A stretch of DNA of 27,660 nucleotides from NCBI GenBank assembly GCA_030608245.1, contig JAUWEO010000001.1, positions 1 through 27,660 of the forward strand, in the 5' to 3' direction. A program made the position numbers and the translations under genes. The stretch comes from Candidatus Latescibacterota bacterium. Its GTDB lineage: Bacteria > Latescibacterota > MVCY01. Each line of letters opens with the position of its first letter. Positions within the stretch are counted from its first letter, which is position 1. Below are positions 2,324 to 9,153 of this stretch, piece by piece. The notes under the pieces are model-generated. The model saw nothing but the letters and a program-made list of their open reading frames with translations. It was not told the origin of the DNA and searched no databases.

Positions 2324-3238
2324 CTATTCCCTTGGCGGTGTGTTTGGCGCAATTTTACCTGTTATCTCAGGATGAAAAATATCAGCGAATTCTTCCAGGG
2401 TCTCGACAAAACTGAGGGGGGTGGGGCTACAAACCTTATCGGAATCAACGATATGGATATTGTTGTTCTTCACTGCATTCATGGTTTTAAATCTCTGCCA
2501 CATTTCCTTTTCTTGTTCACCGACCACTCCCATGGTGACAATAAGAATTATGTCTGGGTTTTGTCTGATGACCTTCTCTCGGCTGTAAAGTCCGCTTGTC
2601 GTTCCCCGGGCAATATTGATCCCCCCAGCCAGTTCGATCAGTTCATTTATGAAAGAATTCTCAATAACAGTAAACAACGGATTGGCCCCTACTTGCATGA
2701 AGACATTGGGCTTGGGCAGCCTCTCAATTACAGTTCTCACCCGCTCTATCTGCTCTGTTGCCCTTCTTACTATATCCCGGGCTTTTTCTTGTTCACTTAC
2801 GAGCTCACCTAACTGGAGGAAAATTTGACAGATTTGGGAAAAATTCTGGGTCTGGGAAAGTTCTGTCACCTTTATGCCTAAACTTCGCAGTTTCTCCACC
2901 TGTTTGGAATCGGTCAAAGAGGTAGCCAGAACTAAATCTGGTTTGAGGCTTACAATTTTTTCCACATCAACCTTAATCACTGTTCCTATCTTCTGCTTTT
3001 TCTTCGCCTCAGGAGGGCTCTGGCAGTATTTGGTGTTAGCCACAAGTCTATCCTCCACACCCAGGAGATAAAGCTCTTCGGTTATTGCAGGGCCTAAAGA
3101 GATTATCCTTTGTGGGGGATTGAGCAGTTCTGTCTCCCTTCGTAAGTCGTCCGTTGCTTTTATTGGGAAGCAGAAGCCTCCACTTGGAGAGCTAATCACC
3201 AATATTGGTATCAAAACTAACCCTATAGATTTTCGCAT
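2324..3238 (-). CDS. btuF: Periplasmic cobalamin-binding protein (BtuF / helical-backbone metal receptor family)
   Basis: N-terminal hydrophobic leader; PQRIISLGPAITEELYLLG, EKIVSLKPDLVLA and EKVIRQNPDIIL motifs; GGAGGT SD 8 nt upstream; operon context. Confidence 0.88.
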   Translation of the reverse strand: MRKSIGLVLIPILVISSPSGGFCFPIKATDDLRRETELLNPPQRIISLGPAITEELYLLGVEDRLVANTKYCQSPPEAKKKQKIGTVIKVDVEKIVSLKPDLVLATSLTDSKQVEKLRSLGIKVTELSQTQNFSQICQIFLQLGELVSEQEKARDIVRRATEQIERVRTVIERLPKPNVFMQVGANPLFTVIENSFINELIELAGGINIARGTTSGLYSREKVIRQNPDIILIVTMGVVGEQEKEMWQRFKTMNAVKNNNIHIVDSDKVCSPTPLSFVETLEEFADIFHPEITGKIAPNTPPRE

Positions 3239-4203
3239 CCTACTAGACCTCCAGGACGATATGACGACAGATCCTCTTTAGTTCTTCCGCAGATGCGACA
3301 GTGAAGTGCTCGCTTGTCCATACCCGCACCACAGAAAGGACACTCCAATTCTTCCCCTTGAGGAGAGGGTATTTCTCCCACTACCTTTTTATAAACCTCA
3401 TAGTAATAAAGATGCTCCCGGTTTAGAAACCTTATCGAATAGTTCTTTTGCTTCCTCTGGAATTCCTCGTCGGATATCTCAGACTCGATAGTCCCTCTTA
3501 GAGTACTGAAACCGGATCCCAACTCAATGGGTCTTTTCTCCTGCCAGAGAATCTGGTGTGGCAAATTCCCCTCGAATGACTTTCTCAATATCCACTTGCC
3601 CCAGGTTTTCCCCTCTTCTCTCACCACTTTCAGGGCTGGTTCTATTCCCAGAGCGAATTCTACGAACTCTTCATCCAGAAACGGCTGTTCTGTGCTAATC
3701 CCTAATGTTTTACCCAAGGAGACGGAGTTGAAACGCATCCTTTTAGCTAAGCGGGGAAGATAGGATTTAAGGTCAAGATCGAACATATAAGAATATCCGC
3801 AGAAGAGCTCATCTGCACCATCCCCTGTCATAACCGAGGATGCCCCTTTTTCTTTTGCCAGTTGGAGGGCAAAATAAGTAGCCAGATCGTTGGGAATGGC
3901 CGGATCAAAGGTCCTTAAGATCCTAATCACCTGGGGGATGGCCTCAAGGGCCTTCTGGATTTCCACCCTCACAGAAGGATGTTCCATTCCCAGATAAGTG
4001 GCAGTCAGGCGTGCATACTCCGAATCCTCGCCGTAGGAACCCAGGGAAACGGTGAACAGAGAGACCTGGGGAGAAAGCGAAGCGAGGATGCTGGAATCCA
4101 GGCCTCCGGAGAAAAGGATTCCTTCGGCTTCATGCTTTGCTACAGCCTCCTTCAGCTTCTTTTTTAAATCTATAAGGATTTTTGAATATCTCTGAGTAGT
4201 CAT
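3223..4203 (-). CDS. Asparagine-synthetase-like protein (synthetase/PP-loop domain only, no glutaminase domain) with C-terminal Zn-ribbon-like Cys motif
   Basis: PP-loop LFSGGLDSS, TGDGADELFCGY, GKWILRKSF..LP..ILW motifs of Asn synthetase C-terminal domains. Only 326 aa with no Ntn Cys-start domain. Tail CPFC-x10-CRIC. Confidence 0.85.
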   Translation of the reverse strand: MTTQRYSKILIDLKKKLKEAVAKHEAEGILFSGGLDSSILASLSPQVSLFTVSLGSYGEDSEYARLTATYLGMEHPSVRVEIQKALEAIPQVIRILRTFDPAIPNDLATYFALQLAKEKGASSVMTGDGADELFCGYSYMFDLDLKSYLPRLAKRMRFNSVSLGKTLGISTEQPFLDEEFVEFALGIEPALKVVREEGKTWGKWILRKSFEGNLPHQILWQEKRPIELGSGFSTLRGTIESEISDEEFQRKQKNYSIRFLNREHLYYYEVYKKVVGEIPSPQGEELECPFCGAGMDKRALHCRICGRTKEDLSSYRPGGLVGCENL

Positions 4204-4218
4204 AGGTGAAAATAGTGG

Positions 4219-4518
4219 TTACAGGCCCAGATAGATCAATCCTGACACACCGTTTCCGATGAGAACGGTCTCCGGATCAATCTGGTGGTGGGTTGAAAGC
4301 TTTTCCACCAGATCGGAGCATTGAGGGTCCGGATAATGAACGATAGACCGCAGATGCCTTTTTAATCCTTTCTCTACAGGGGATGGGGGCCCCAGCGGAT
4401 TGATGTTGGCACTAAAATCTAAGAACGTACTTTCAGGTAGTCCGAACTCCAGAGCCGCTACCCTGAGGCTTCCTCCGTGACTATTATTGTTCAATTCCCT
4501 CTCTGGCTCCGACTCCAT
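4219..4518 (-). pseudogene. cobD: Truncated threonine-phosphate decarboxylase (CobD); N-terminal ~90-99 aa only
   Basis: HGGSL...LDFSANINPLGPP...YPDP...VLIGNGVSGLIYL matches the CobD/HisC-like N-terminus. A TAA follows at 4219-4221 and the next gene starts 16 nt later, so the PLP-lysine region (~250 aa) is absent. Alternative TTG start at 4494. Confidence 0.8.
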
Positions 4519-4849
4519 TCTGGTAGTAATGCTTCACCTCCTGCATCTCTGTCACCAGATCTGCCCGCTCGACGATCTGCCTAGGAGCATACCGTCCAGT
4601 GATCACCAGCTCCACGGTCTCAGGTTTCAGGTTGATTAAGTCCACCAGCGCTTCAACCGTCAATAGTCCAAAGCGCAGGGCTACTGTGACTTCGTCCAGG
4701 ACAATGATATCGTATTGCCCTGAGCACATCGCCTCCAGGGTCTTTAGTTCCCCTGAGGGCTGTCCTTTCATGAACTGTCCGATATATGTCCTCAGGCCTC
4801 TGGGGAAACTGCAGCCTGTTGGCTTCCAGCTATAGATACGAAATCTCAT
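4484..4849 (-). pseudogene. cobO: Degenerate cob(I)alamin adenosyltransferase (CobO/BtuR family), lacking the P-loop and a central segment
   Basis: Retains GLRTYIGQFMKG, YDIIVLDE, ELVITGRYAP, ADLVTEMQEVKHYY and AREGIE. Only 121 aa (family about 170-200 aa). No GxGKGKT P-loop, and GQFMKGQPSGELKTL is joined directly to EAMCSGQYD. Confidence 0.75.
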
Positions 4850-6258
4850 TATTTCAGCAGCGTTGCCTTTACTGTCTTAGTGCTTCCGTCTACCTCCAGT
4901 TTGATGACATACATACCACTGGAGACCGGCTCTCCTGAAAGGTCTCGGCCGTCCCAGATGGCGAGGTGGGTTCCTGGGTCTTGCTGCTGGCATACCAGGG
5001 TTTTCACCCGCCGGCCCAGCAGGTCGTAGACCTCCAGCCGAAGGAACGACTCTTCCGTTCCGCTGATCTGATATGGGATGACCGTGGAGGCGTTGAACGG
5101 ATTGGGATAATTCTGTCCCAATGAGCTGCCTAGAGGCGTCAGTTCCGGGCTTGTCTGTTCGGCCACGTCAGTGGTTGCTTCGCCCACAAAGGCAATTGAG
5201 TTGGGAGGAAGTCCGGTGGAGATAGGACCTGCGATCAGGTGGTCGTCAAACGTGTCGTAGATGTAAATCCCGGGGTGTTCTGTCGAGCGGTCGGCAACAT
5301 ACAGTTTTCCGATCCCGCTGACTGCGACATTTGCCGCCGAGCTAACCTCTGCCAGTGGGTTCCCGAGGCTTCCATCCACAGGGTTAAACGGTTTCACCAG
5401 TGTATTGGGCCATGTCCCCATCACTAAGACATAGCCTTTGGATGCTGAGACCATCGCCACCCCGGAGAGGTTTCCTTCCAGGTCCGTTTCGCCGATCAGA
5501 ACCCCCTGGTTGGTATCCGTGGCAGTGTCGATCACCTCAATGCCTCCGTCTGTGGGGTCCCACCAACTGCCTGTGCAGGCTACATAGAGTTTCCCACCAA
5601 ACAGGGCCATATCGCAGGGATTTTTCCGCTCCAGCTCGATAGTTTTGACTACACTGTCGCTGGTTATATCTATTATTATGATGAGGCTTAGGTCACCTGG
5701 TCCCCATCCTTTTAATCTCTGGCAGGTTACATAGAGTTTCCCCCCAGCAATGGCCATCGATGACATCTGAGGGACTGCCTCGGCGCTGTCTGTGCCGGCG
5801 TAGGCGACAAAGCCTGACAAATCAACCTCTCCGATCTTATCACCTGTGGAAGGATCGATAACCCACAGGGCTGTGTCGTCATAGCGTGAGACATAGGCCT
5901 TGTGCTCGCTCACAAAGGCGATATCATGGGGATTAGAGTCGTTGCCCATAGACTTCTGGTAAATTATCCCGCTTTCGCCCAAGTTGTCGGGGTCCAGCTT
6001 GATGATGTCATCGGCGCCTTTGCGCTCGATCACATACATATAGCCTTCATAGGCAGTGACTGCGTTGTCGCTGTGGATAGGCAGCAGATCGATTGCGGCG
6101 GTAGTTTCTCCTTCGCTAATGCTTGCCAGGTTTCCGCTGGAATAATCGGTTGTAGTGATCACGGCCATCTGCTCTGCGATAACCTCCTGACCGATTACTG
6201 AGATGCCCAAGACCAATATCGCAGCGAAGAATATCTTCAATATCTTAGTTTTAAGCAT
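4849..6258 (-). CDS. Secreted beta-propeller protein (YncE/BtuG-like) with C-terminal FlgD-Ig / T9SS type A sorting-like domain; probable corrinoid-binding protein
   Basis: Start re-called at 6258 (AAGGAGGAG SD; MLKTKILKIFFAAILVLG signal peptide without a lipobox Cys). Repeated blades: NPHDIAFVSEHKAYVS, GGKLYVTC, NPCDMALFGGKLYVAC, GKLYVADR, PNSIAF. Tail LGQNYPNPFN...LEVYDLLGRRVKTLV...WDGRD..G..VSSGMY...TVKATLLK. Confidence 0.8.
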   Translation of the reverse strand: MLKTKILKIFFAAILVLGISVIGQEVIAEQMAVITTTDYSSGNLASISEGETTAAIDLLPIHSDNAVTAYEGYMYVIERKGADDIIKLDPDNLGESGIIYQKSMGNDSNPHDIAFVSEHKAYVSRYDDTALWVIDPSTGDKIGEVDLSGFVAYAGTDSAEAVPQMSSMAIAGGKLYVTCQRLKGWGPGDLSLIIIIDITSDSVVKTIELERKNPCDMALFGGKLYVACTGSWWDPTDGGIEVIDTATDTNQGVLIGETDLEGNLSGVAMVSASKGYVLVMGTWPNTLVKPFNPVDGSLGNPLAEVSSAANVAVSGIGKLYVADRSTEHPGIYIYDTFDDHLIAGPISTGLPPNSIAFVGEATTDVAEQTSPELTPLGSSLGQNYPNPFNASTVIPYQISGTEESFLRLEVYDLLGRRVKTLVCQQQDPGTHLAIWDGRDLSGEPVSSGMYVIKLEVDGSTKTVKATLLK

Positions 6259-6426
6259 AGTTTTCTCCTCCTTAATTGTAACCCTTTCATTTATAGCTGG
6301 AAACCGTCGGCGGCAGTTTTCCCCAGAGGCCCGGCCGGCCCAACCTGATTGGACTCCATGCTGTGTTCCCTCTCTTTTCACCTCCTTTCTCATTAAGTAG
6401 AAAGGTAATTCTGGGAAACCCTAGTC

Positions 6427-8712
6427 TTAGAATGCTCCGGAAACAGTAACATAGTACGACCTTCCTGGCAGCGGATATCCCCACAGGTCGGCTACCTGCG
6501 TGTCGGTAAGATTTTTGGCCTGTAAGGTGCCTTTCAGTTGCCTCCGCCAGGGACACACCACCGTGAAGCCGATGCTGTGAATGACCCGCCTCTCGATGGG
6601 CACCTTGTTGTACAGGTCGTGGAAGTTCTTATCAGTGTACGAATAATCGTAGAATATCTCCCCATGATCTCCAGAGAAAACTGTTCCCCGAACGCTGGTT
6701 TCCCTCTTGGCTTTATTGGGCAGCAGCTTATCGTAGTAAATCCCCCCGTAAAGATCAGAGCGATTCAAGGCCTGCTGGTAGGTGAAGTTTCCCTCGATTC
6801 TTAGATGCCCTAAAATGTTCGTTCCCCCTGTGATTTCCAGCCCTTGTATATGTGCCTTGCCGATGTTCTCGGGTCTGGAGGTCATCTGTGAGTGTTGGAT
6901 AAACTGAATCAGATTATCCATACGGTTGTCGAAATACGCTATCTCCAGAGCAGTTTCTTGTATCTTCCCAATGTGTCCAATGGTGACCCTGAACCCTATG
7001 TCCCGGCTGAGTCCCCGCTCTGGTTCCAGACCCGTATTTCCGATCGTTGCCCCTTTGTCACCAAAGAGTTCGTAGAAAGAGGGGACACGGTAGTATTTCC
7101 CGATATTGCCCTTTATTGTCAGCCAGGTGAGGGTCTTGTATTTAACCCCCAGTCGATGGCTGAGAAATCGATACTCTCGTTTTCTGGCCGGAGCTTTCAC
7201 CCAGTGCCCATGGGTGTAATCGCCGTAGAAGCGGCTTTGGTAGCTTTCTTTGCGCAGTGAAAAAATACAGCTCAGTTTTTCTCTGAGCAGAACGATCTCA
7301 TCTTCAGCTGCCAGTGAATAGCTCCACCGCTTGCTTTCAAACAGGTGCTCGTGGTGCAGTCGATCAGAGGGGAGAAATCGTTCTTGCTTCCATTTGAGCA
7401 ATAACGACCATACCTGATACTGTCCTACTATGGATTTTAGGGATATTTTTCCACCGTAGGTTTGGGTGACATTGTGGCTATCCTGTTTGCCGAGGCCTAC
7501 CTCGGCTTCTAAGTCGCGATAATCGTTGGCGTAGTAGGTGTTAAATCCTTTCAAAGCAAAGGTCCATCCATACTTTGGGAATCCCCGCCTCAAGAAAGAG
7601 ACTTCGGTCAGATTCTGGGTCACCTTAAGTCGGGCGAATCTGGACTGGAAACTCCCCCTGCCTGGGATCCCCTTGGAGGACCAGCAGAAGTTGTTATTTA
7701 CAGAGAATTCTGCCCGACCAGAGAATCTCCAGAGGATCTTGCCAACGAAGTTGGCTGATTGGAATCCGTTGTTCTGTCGCCGTCTCCACTGGTCGTCTGC
7801 CTTGTTGTAGCGTGTCCCGTTGTCGTCTAAAAAGGGGAAATCATTATCGCTCTTAGTATAGTCTATTGCTGTCAAGTAGTTGAAATCTCTATGTCTCCCC
7901 GAAAAGAATACACTGCTCTGTCTGGTTCCGAAGGTGCCACTGTTCAATCCGTAGCCTCCGATCCTGGCTTTCATTCTTTTGGTGACGATATGTACCACCC
8001 CGCCCAAGCCGCTTCCGCCGAACTTCGCCGGGATTGTTCCTTTGTAGACTTCAATCCGCTCCACATTGGAGAGGGGGATATTACCCAGGTTAACCCCTCC
8101 CCCTAAGGCGCTGTTCAAGGGCACGCCATCTAAGTACACTCTCACCTGTTGAGCTGAGGTCCCCCGGACAGAGACGGTGCTGTAGCTGCCTAGCCCCCCT
8201 AAGGTCTTGATCTGGACTCCGGCGGTTCCGGCAAGCACCTCAGGCAAGGAGACAGATTTGTCTTCAAACTCCTCTGCCCTGATCACGGCGACAAAGGCCT
8301 GGGAGTGTTCTGCCTCAGAGATCTTTTCTTTTTCGGAAATCACCACCACATCTTTCAGGCGGAAACTCACTGGCTCCATAGTTAGAGAGATCTCAACTGT
8401 CTCTGCGGTTTTTAGCTTGAGTTTTTTGCAGACCAGGCTGTAACCGATTATGTGTCCGTGAAGCTGGTAAGTACCAGGAGGCACTTTTCCGATGGCAAAT
8501 CTCCCTGAGGAGTCTGTGGTTGTCCCTATCTTCAGGGGTTCGATCCATACAGGTACTCCTGCCAGAGGTTGGCCTGTGGAGGTGTCGGTCACCTGGCCTG
8601 TGATTTGCCCCGGTTCGGAAGAGAAGCAGATGGTGGGGAATAGCGAGACCAACATAGCAAACCACAAAAGGTGTTTTCCTTGTTTGCCTAATCCCGAGAT
8701 CATCTCTCGCAT
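6427..8712 (-). CDS. btuB: TonB-dependent outer-membrane receptor, probable cobalamin transporter, with N-terminal carboxypeptidase-regulatory-like domain
   Basis: GQITGQVTDTSTGQPLAGV N-domain; plug motifs SVRGTSAQQVRVYLDGVPLN and IERIEVYKG; PSFYELFG; C-terminal NLTD...YPLPGRSYYVTVSGAF ending in an aromatic residue. First gene after the cobalamin riboswitch. Start may be the ATG at 8703. Confidence 0.9.
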   Translation of the reverse strand: MREMISGLGKQGKHLLWFAMLVSLFPTICFSSEPGQITGQVTDTSTGQPLAGVPVWIEPLKIGTTTDSSGRFAIGKVPPGTYQLHGHIIGYSLVCKKLKLKTAETVEISLTMEPVSFRLKDVVVISEKEKISEAEHSQAFVAVIRAEEFEDKSVSLPEVLAGTAGVQIKTLGGLGSYSTVSVRGTSAQQVRVYLDGVPLNSALGGGVNLGNIPLSNVERIEVYKGTIPAKFGGSGLGGVVHIVTKRMKARIGGYGLNSGTFGTRQSSVFFSGRHRDFNYLTAIDYTKSDNDFPFLDDNGTRYNKADDQWRRRQNNGFQSANFVGKILWRFSGRAEFSVNNNFCWSSKGIPGRGSFQSRFARLKVTQNLTEVSFLRRGFPKYGWTFALKGFNTYYANDYRDLEAEVGLGKQDSHNVTQTYGGKISLKSIVGQYQVWSLLLKWKQERFLPSDRLHHEHLFESKRWSYSLAAEDEIVLLREKLSCIFSLRKESYQSRFYGDYTHGHWVKAPARKREYRFLSHRLGVKYKTLTWLTIKGNIGKYYRVPSFYELFGDKGATIGNTGLEPERGLSRDIGFRVTIGHIGKIQETALEIAYFDNRMDNLIQFIQHSQMTSRPENIGKAHIQGLEITGGTNILGHLRIEGNFTYQQALNRSDLYGGIYYDKLLPNKAKRETSVRGTVFSGDHGEIFYDYSYTDKNFHDLYNKVPIERRVIHSIGFTVVCPWRRQLKGTLQAKNLTDTQVADLWGYPLPGRSYYVTVSGAF

Positions 8713-8917: not shown

Positions 8918-8967
8918 CCATTGGCAATACGGTCGCCACCTCCCCTCGGAGGCTTCTGATGCAAACC

Positions 8968-9129
8968 GAAACCAGGCAGGTCTCCTGACTTACGACCAAT
9001 TCTGCCGCGCCTTCCCACCCTTAACAGGCAGTGGCATTCTGCGGCAGCCTTATCGGCCGATTACAGTGGCGGGGCCGTGACGGACTTTCACCGTCTTCCC
9101 CTATTCTCCTCTTGCGAGGCACCTGGTTC
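8968..9129 (-). promoter_or_regulatory. Cobalamin (AdoCbl-type) riboswitch aptamer
   Basis: Minus strand: GAACCAGGTGC...AATAGGGGAAGACGGTGAAAGTCCGTCACGGCCCCGCCACTGTAA...GCCACTG...GGGAAGGC...AAGTCAGGAGACCTGCCTGGTTTC. All hallmark segments, including the B12 box, are present; P1 is closed by GAACCAGG/CCTGGTTTC. Confidence 0.97.
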
Positions 9130-9153
9130 CACTCATTAGAATGTCGATTTCAT

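Follow-up and report, generated by a model that had tools for sequence, protein, structure and literature searches.

A glutaminase-less asparagine synthetase homologue in B12 operons: a candidate ammonia-dependent corrinoid amide synthetase

Introduction

Why should a B12 salvage operon contain a relative of asparagine synthetase? The question is raised by a 27,660-nucleotide stretch of DNA from Candidatus Latescibacterota bacterium (GenBank assembly GCA_030608245.1, contig JAUWEO010000001.1, positions 1–27,660 of the forward strand; hereafter the window), in which a gene at 3223–4203 on the minus strand encodes a 326-residue protein, P0001, that resembles AsnB and has no glutaminase domain. 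The original prediction, made from the sequence alone, was that P0001 is a new corrinoid amide ligase, which would either amidate or repair corrinoid side chains with ammonia or attach an alternative linker.

In ordinary B12 producers, side-chain amidation is carried out by the glutamine-dependent cobyric acid synthase, CobQ/CbiP. The B12 pathway is considered to be completely mapped, and genome-based predictions of which organisms make B12 and which need it use markers such as cobQ/cbiP. We report here that P0001 belongs to a conserved family that is embedded in B12 operons and whose distribution is complementary to that of full-length CobQ. We tentatively favour the view that P0001 is an ammonia-dependent corrinoid side-chain amide synthetase that stands in for CobQ/CbiP, with which a salvaging bacterium would finish or repair the corrinoids that it imports.

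Results

P0001 corresponds to the synthetase half of AsnB

The open reading frame (ORF) of P0001 starts with ATG, and the sole Pfam domain in its product is PF00733 (Asn_synthase; 145.2 bits against a gathering threshold of 21). The protein aligns with approximately residues 209–504 of the 553 in Escherichia coli AsnB and, as the match starts at about 209–211, contains the synthetase half only, just as had been predicted. A glutaminase remnant 5′ of the gene was sought and rejected; the DNA there is debris of cobD and cobA. The lack of a glutaminase domain means that P0001 has no ammonia tunnel and that any nitrogen must reach it as free ammonia or as an amine.

The remaining features read from the sequence proved to be intact and correctly placed. 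The PP-loop SGGLDSS, the ATP pyrophosphatase motif, occupies residues 32–38 (4090–4110, minus strand), and S32, G33, G34 and D36 are invariant among homologues. The TGDGADELF motif spans residues 126–134 (3802–3828, minus strand) and contains an acidic cluster, D128/D131/E132, that matches E364/D367/E368 of human asparagine synthetase (ASNS). The C-terminal tail, with CPFC at residues 288–291 and CRIC at 302–305, forms a Cys4 ribbon, C288-x2-C291 ... H301-C302-x2-C305 (3289–3342, minus strand), whose residues are invariant and which gave a weak zinc-ribbon match (Zn_ribbon_3, residues 285–306) in the Pfam scan. The ORF overlaps btuF (2324–3238) by 16 nt, and a GGAGG sequence lies 9 nt ahead of the btuF ATG, within the 3′ end of the P0001 gene.

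Structure prediction, one of the checks suggested at the outset, yielded a confident AlphaFold2 model (mean pLDDT 90.5) with the AsnB synthetase fold. Its best match in the PDB was AsnB (1ct9, TMq 0.71), followed by human ASNS, beta-lactam synthetase and carbapenam synthetase; the AsnB, beta-lactam synthetase and carbapenam synthetase (CarA) matches fell at TMq 0.6–0.73. In PDB sequence searches, beta-lactam and carbapenam synthetases matched over the synthetase domain only (E-values 1e-9 to 4e-7). The gene has a dN/dS of 0.21 against its orthologue in a genome of the same genus. Given the homologues, the invariant columns described below, the dN/dS and the confident model, P0001 is not a chance ORF.

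P0001 belongs to a distinct AsnB-like family

A search of a large protein collection returned 1951 homologues at E ≤ 1e-3; in the top 120, all lengths fall within 292–354 residues and identities within 51–91%. We defined the family by a single domain of approximately 305–325 residues, the PP-loop, TGDG[AS]DE, GKWILRK and the C-x2-C...HC-x2-C tail. P0001 has all of these features and lies behind a riboswitch among cob and btu genes; an adjoining Dph6-like partner, usual elsewhere in the family (see below), is missing. Its identity to family members is 50–91%, and it carries all 55 columns that are invariant across 25 diverse members, including the PP-loop, T126-G-D-G-x-D-E, G202-K-W-x-L-R, K223 and C288/C291/H301/C302/C305.

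A tree of 107 members resolved two clades: a bacterial-type clade with the signature FDPA[IL]PND, which holds P0001, and an archaeal-type clade with FDPE[IV]RNS, in which an AsnB-like Arg is kept. Members paired with a Dph6-like gene, and members linked to btu or cob genes, occur in both. An ESM Atlas search matched clusters of the same family alone, all of them prokaryotic, and gave no further pointer to function. No fused forms of 572–2000 residues were found at E ≤ 1e-30; the CobY fusions described below escaped that search because they are 526–533 residues long. Literature searches found no publication on this family; one paper that mentions asparagine synthase together with B12 is about another gene.

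The family is associated with B12 genes

We then surveyed 85 non-redundant loci, drawn from 80 species genomes of the GTDB collection plus metagenome contigs and covering more than 15 bacterial and archaeal phyla, and annotated the neighbouring genes with hidden Markov models built from the loci themselves. This count had been named beforehand as a test of the original prediction. Genes of the cob or btuFC type lie within 10 kb of the AsnB-like gene in 60 of 85 loci, and in 27 of the 35 that have at least 5 kb on both sides. By rough reasoning, a given B12 locus would be expected by chance in a 20-kb neighbourhood in a few percent of cases. Cobalamin riboswitches were found upstream on the same strand in all seven loci tested, besides the one in the window, and that of locus L047 ends 100 nt ahead of the AsnB-like gene. 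The outcome that had been named as contrary to the prediction, no enrichment near cob and btu genes, is therefore clearly not what is seen.

The commonest B12 neighbours are BtuD (45/85), BtuF and BtuC (43/85 each), followed by CobT (30), CobU, CobS and CbiB (29 each), CobD (28) and CobA (25), and a TonB-dependent receptor is present in 26 loci. A second PP-loop enzyme, related to the diphthine-ammonia ligase Dph6 (PF01902), occurs in 56 of 85 loci, in 43 of them on the same strand and within 600 nt. Less frequent are the CbpA/CbpB peptide/radical-SAM pair (TIGR04164/TIGR04163; 8/85) and a small radical-SAM gene (11/85). Clustering of unassigned neighbouring ORFs yielded nothing recurrent beyond ExbB/ExbD/TonB, with no other family in more than seven loci, and no CbiA- or CobQ-like ORF was detected within 87 AsnB-like loci. 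Most carriers belong to anaerobic sediment lineages (Dehalococcoidia, Syntrophales, Desulfobacterales, Omnitrophota and Nitrospirota); the archaeal ones include ANME and other methanogen relatives, Bathyarchaeia, Hadarchaeota and Asgard archaea. We conclude that the AsnB-like gene is very probably a genuine, conserved PP-loop amide synthetase gene dedicated to B12.

Two types of neighbour were recorded at individual loci. A CbpA precursor gene and a gene for the CbpB radical-SAM/SPASM maturase lie between the AsnB-like and Dph6-like genes at L004:10935–12421 and L003:11657–13250. A CbiR-type cobamide remodelling phosphodiesterase (NF041277, 243 bits) is encoded at L001:8746–9609, in an operon with the AsnB-like gene, btuFCD and cobUTS, and L025 contains a second example.

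The distribution of the family is complementary to full-length CobQ

A fixed sample of 251 Thermoproteota genomes was searched for the AsnB-like family, CobQ, CbiA and CbiC. The AsnB-like family is carried by 79 of them, yet by none of the 19 with full-length CobQ and by all 34 in which CobQ is reduced to its ATPase domain (approximately 280–290 residues, no GATase_3). Among genomes with CbiC, carriers number 0 of 11 when full CobQ is present and 48 of 55 when it is not, and 9 of the 12 that have neither CbiA nor CobQ are carriers. A further 50 carriers came from phyla other than Thermoproteota, most of them bacterial; full-length CobQ was found in two of these, CbiC in two (neither with CobQ) and CbiA in six (none with CobQ). 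Nine of the first ten carrier genomes analysed, from diverse phyla, have no CbiC and are salvagers; in the five of these nine in which CobQ and CbiA were sought, both were absent. The AsnB-like family is thus almost confined to genomes without full CobQ, which suggests that it does the job of CobQ, presumably with free ammonia.

Individual genomes illustrate the pattern. In the tenth of the first carriers, a member of the Nezhaarchaeales (G172), a cbiM-cbiQ-cbiO-cbiC-cbiD-cbiE-cbiT-cbiL cluster is present (locus L088, C1:391000–410900); neither CbiA nor CobQ was detected in the assembly, whose glutaminases are small and generic. The glutaminase-less CobQ of genome G410 (L093:4395–5234) consists of the CbiA-type ATPase domain only (TIGR00313 positions 1–250) and is encoded in an operon cobD-cobQ′-cbiB-cobS-cobY; it is a real gene. 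In genome G291 (L097:9884–12255), the AsnB-like gene is directly upstream of a full-length cbiA in the same orientation, this unit is divergent from btuF-btuC-btuD-btuF, and no CbiC or CobQ match was found in the genome. Biochemically, CbiA would be of use in the absence of CobQ only if the carboxylates that it leaves were amidated by another enzyme. A caveat on this line of evidence is that homologues of CbiA can act on other tetrapyrroles.

Several Thermoprotei, moreover, encode fusions of CobY with the AsnB-like protein (526–533 residues) in cobT-cobS-fusion operons, as at L114:6295–8058 and L118:8001–9587. These fusions form at least five protein clusters with identity down to 45% (P0129–P0131, P0133 and P0137). 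Their N-terminus is a CobY-like nucleoside triphosphate transferase, for which the best NCBIfam models, TIGR00454 and an adenosylcobinamide-phosphate guanylyltransferase model, both scored below cut-off; their C-terminus is an AsnB-like domain complete with ribbon. Beyond what had been predicted, this analysis adds the complementarity with CobQ, the operon with cbiA and the fusion to CobY.

The operon in the window and in a sister genome

In agreement with the original prediction, the P0001 gene lies within a B12 operon, whose genes are all on the minus strand and which is headed by a cobalamin riboswitch at 8958–9141 (RF00174, 121 bits, E 3e-30). The riboswitch is followed by a BtuB-like TonB-dependent outer-membrane receptor (6427–8712; Plug and TonB_dep_Rec_b-barrel domains), a beta-propeller protein with a type IX secretion system (T9SS) sorting tail (4849–6393; Por_Secre_tail and DUF5074 matches), a cobA/btuR remnant encoding the C-terminal half of the corrinoid adenosyltransferase (4484–4849; PF02572 positions 89–171 of 172) and a remnant of cobD, the threonine-phosphate decarboxylase gene, encoding its N-terminal 99 residues (4219–4518; TIGR01140 positions 1–80 of 331). 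Beyond the P0001 gene lie btuF, for a periplasmic corrinoid-binding protein (2324–3238; Peripla_BP_2, BtuF model NF002894, E 6e-34), a btuC-type permease gene (1292–2311; FecCD, 316 bits), a btuD-type ABC ATPase gene (468–1292; ABC_tran) and cobU, for adenosylcobinamide kinase/guanylyltransferase, which is cut by the window edge (1–408; NF004469, E 4.5e-43). A cobT-cobS pair on another contig of the genome (C212:60–1882) begins 60 nt from the contig end and probably continues the operon, which after cobU passes out of the window on the left. A second, intact copy of cobA is present on contig C169. The source genome, which is 90% complete, yielded no CbiC, CbiA or CobQ, no cbiB and no Dph6-like gene of the PF01902 type. 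With its riboswitch, BtuB, BtuFCD and CobU/T/S, the bacterium is a pure corrinoid salvager.

In the phylum of the source bacterium, the AsnB-like family was found in two of 168 genomes, both of the same genus. The second (G029, locus L002) has the arrangement cobA-cobD-cbiB-AsnB-like-(163-aa ORF)-Dph6-like; the 163-aa ORF (L002:5154–5645) has no Pfam or NCBIfam match. Nucleotide alignment revealed that the window lacks L002 positions 1371–1667, 1740–1853 and 2372–4181, three deletions of which two cut cobA and the third, of 1810 bp, takes the 3′ end of cobD and the whole of cbiB. The AsnB-like gene has remained intact under purifying selection while the adjoining cobA copy, cobD and cbiB decayed, and we therefore conclude that its function is independent of CbiB and CobD.

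These observations bear on the proposal that P0001 attaches an alternative linker, which had been thought to fit the loss of cobD next door. The window has simply lost cobD 3′ sequence and cbiB in the 1.8-kb deletion, the sister genome holds cobA, cobD, cbiB and the AsnB-like gene in a single operon, and CbiB and CobD lie beside the AsnB-like gene in 29 and 28 of the 85 loci. As CbiB, CobD and the AsnB-like enzyme occur together in the sister genome and in about one-third of loci, the last is not a replacement for either of the others. Of the two activities envisaged for a corrinoid amide ligase, side-chain amidation or repair with ammonia is the one that best fits the anticorrelation with CobQ, and the alternative linker is unsupported.

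Relation of P0001 to known enzymes

P0001 shares with AsnB (E. coli 1ct9; human ASNS 6gq3) the fold (27% identity), the PP-loop, SG(E/D)G(S/A)DE and the catalytic Lys, and presumably also the chemistry, in which an acyl-adenylate forms and then reacts with ammonia. The Lys in WRQKEQ (E. coli K449, human K466) has its counterpart in K223, which is invariant in the family. P0001 differs from AsnB in having no N-terminal Ntn-type glutaminase domain, in its extra Cys4 ribbon and in its B12 operon, as opposed to a housekeeping context; moreover, its scores fall far below the cut-offs of the AsnB models NF006949 (147.6 bits versus 499) and TIGR01536 (118.5 versus 267.1). At the aspartate site, E364/D367/E368 (human numbering) are kept as D128/D131/E132, the family profile has a deletion where D400/R403 would lie, and P0001 has P104-N105-D106 in place of the Arg of the AsnB TTIR motif. 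Residue roles are in part those assigned in PMC6748925.

Beta-lactam and carbapenam synthetases (1jgt, 1q15), the second-best structural matches, are likewise derived from AsnB, have lost the use of glutamine and act on substrates other than aspartate. Unlike the single-domain, B12-linked AsnB-like family, they keep a dead N-terminal domain, form intramolecular lactams and are encoded in antibiotic clusters. P0001 also falls well outside the cyclase and lactam-synthetase models (37 against a cut-off of 300 for NF033561; 27.9 against 525 for NF033535).

CobQ/CbiP (TIGR00313) and the a,c-diamide synthase CbiA/CobB (TIGR00379) would resemble P0001 in what they do, the ATP-dependent conversion of a corrin carboxylate to an amide, and AsnB-like genes occupy the same late place in cob operons, by cbiB, cobD and cobUST, in a distribution complementary to full CobQ. 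The known enzymes, however, combine a MinD-like P-loop ATPase with GATase_3 and activate the carboxylate by phosphorylation; PP-loop enzymes do so by adenylation. Pfam and NCBIfam scans found no CbiA-type P-loop ATPase or GATase_3 domain in P0001; judged from its sequence, P0001 would be an analogue of CobQ/CbiA at most and not a homologue, the fold being unrelated. The Dph6 family also consists of glutaminase-less PP-loop enzymes that amidate a carboxylate with free ammonia, and it shares operons with the AsnB-like genes; it is nevertheless a separate PP-loop family, and neither the window nor the source genome yielded a member.

Discussion

A possible ammonia-dependent route of corrin amidation

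We propose that P0001 would bind ATP at its SGGLDSS loop and adenylate a carboxylate side chain left free on a corrinoid whose amidation is incomplete, after which free ammonia would displace AMP to give the amide. The observed fold, motifs, conserved B12 context, riboswitch control and anticorrelation with full-length CobQ are what this scheme builds on; its substrate, ammonia as the nitrogen donor and the particular carboxylates to be amidated are what it predicts. In most carriers the AsnB-like enzyme would work beside the PP-loop ligase related to diphthine-ammonia ligase. In the source bacterium, amide side chains of imported cobinamide-type corrinoids would be finished or repaired before assembly of the nucleotide loop.

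More tentatively still, the AsnB-like and Dph6-like enzymes may together form a glutamine-independent PP-loop route of corrin amidation that replaces CobQ/CbiP and, in some archaea, CbiA too. Such a route would fill the place of the cobyric acid synthase that many archaeal B12 producers lack, among them ammonia-oxidiser-like lineages with only a glutaminase-less CobQ, and would enable salvagers of anoxic sediments to use corrinoids that are under-amidated, or to repair them. If a PP-loop enzyme does carry out this step, the many archaea and bacteria at present taken to have no cobyric acid synthase would be scored anew, under-amidated corrinoids would become a new class of environmental B12 precursors with relevance to microbial cross-feeding, and a second, ammonia-dependent enzymology of corrin amidation would be available for study and engineering. 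The hypothesis is directly testable with one or two small soluble proteins.

Several observations weigh against this interpretation. The phyletic counts come from related genomes, so that a few clades could drive them and the Fisher values computed from them overstate the evidence, and many of the genomes are metagenome-assembled, which makes absences soft. The CobQ complementarity was measured mostly on the archaeal-type clade, whereas P0001 is of the bacterial type, and full-length CobQ is present in two of the 50 further carriers. A glutaminase-less CobQ is retained in the ammonia-oxidiser-like clade, so that the AsnB-like enzyme need not replace CobQ outright; in this subclade, which also shows no B12 genes beside the AsnB-like gene, the enzyme may share the work with the truncated CobQ, or act otherwise. 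The usual Dph6-like partner is missing from the source genome at its present completeness, and there is no obvious reason why salvagers without CbiB would meet a supply of under-amidated corrinoids sufficient for the enzyme to be retained. Finally, the conserved D128/D131/E132 would also suit an amino-acid-like substrate, the acidic cluster of ASNS being the site that binds the alpha-amino group of aspartate (PMC6748925).

Other explanations of the locus

That last point leads to one alternative, namely that P0001 is a plain asparagine synthetase that uses ammonia, or some other amide ligase of a housekeeping kind, and merely happens to be co-regulated with B12 genes. AsnB is the closest solved and curated relative of P0001, the acidic cluster and catalytic Lys are retained, the archaeal-type clade keeps the Arg of TTIR, and the ammonia-oxidiser-like clade stands apart from B12 genes. 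We nevertheless consider this explanation quite improbable: P0001 scores far under both AsnB cut-offs, the equivalents of human D400/R403 are missing, the bacterial-type clade has an invariant P-N-D in place of the Arg, and asparagine synthesis offers no rationale for the placing of the gene between cbiB and btuF, downstream of riboswitches, across many phyla, or for its fusion to CobY. A non-corrinoid substrate required for B12 salvage, such as the CbpA peptide (with the radical-SAM enzyme CbpB), a precursor of the lower ligand or linker, or a carrier protein, is somewhat less improbable. It would account for the loci in which CbpA/CbpB and the small radical-SAM gene lie between the AsnB-like and Dph6-like genes, and relatives of the fold do cyclise or amidate peptides, as reflected in weak matches to lasso-cyclase and macrolactam models. 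The low frequency of both CbpB and the small radical-SAM gene among the 85 loci speaks against it, as does the failure of either to appear as an operon partner in the window or genome, and it leaves the avoidance of full-length CobQ and the cbiA operon unexplained.

An unlikely explanation, though the strongest of the alternatives, is that the AsnB-like enzyme makes, or helps CbiB to make, the amide that joins the f-propionate of cobyric acid to aminopropanol(-phosphate) or to a different amine, as a soluble ATP-dependent cobinamide(-phosphate) synthase or a partner of CbiB. The AsnB-like gene directly follows cbiB or cobD in many loci (L001–L004 and others), and the cobinamide-phosphate that this reaction yields is the substrate of CobY, its fusion partner in some archaea; CbiB is a membrane protein and is not known to have a recognisable ATP site. 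Against this, the gene is intact in the window despite the deletion of cbiB and cobD, in a genome where no cbiB was found; about two-thirds of loci have neither CbiB nor CobD within 10 kb; and the complementarity is with CobQ, whereas CbiB coexists with the AsnB-like protein. CbiB, moreover, suffices in organisms without the AsnB-like family. The Cys4 tail, lastly, might bind an Fe-S cluster and the adenylated intermediate undergo chemistry other than amide formation, for instance sulfur insertion as in TtuA, NcsA or LarE. These PP-loop proteins with Cys clusters are distant structural matches of P0001 (TMq 0.27–0.37), far weaker than AsnB and the lactam-forming synthetases; the tail agrees with zinc-ribbon models, sulfur-carrier genes are not among the recurrent neighbours, and we regard this explanation as highly improbable. 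Side-chain amidation in place of CobQ is thus the reading that we prefer.

Some archaeal genomes, among them G339 (loci L102 and L101) and G353 (loci L105 and L104), each encode two AsnB-like paralogues, one of them paired with a Dph6-like gene and the other alone, which hints at sub-functionalisation.

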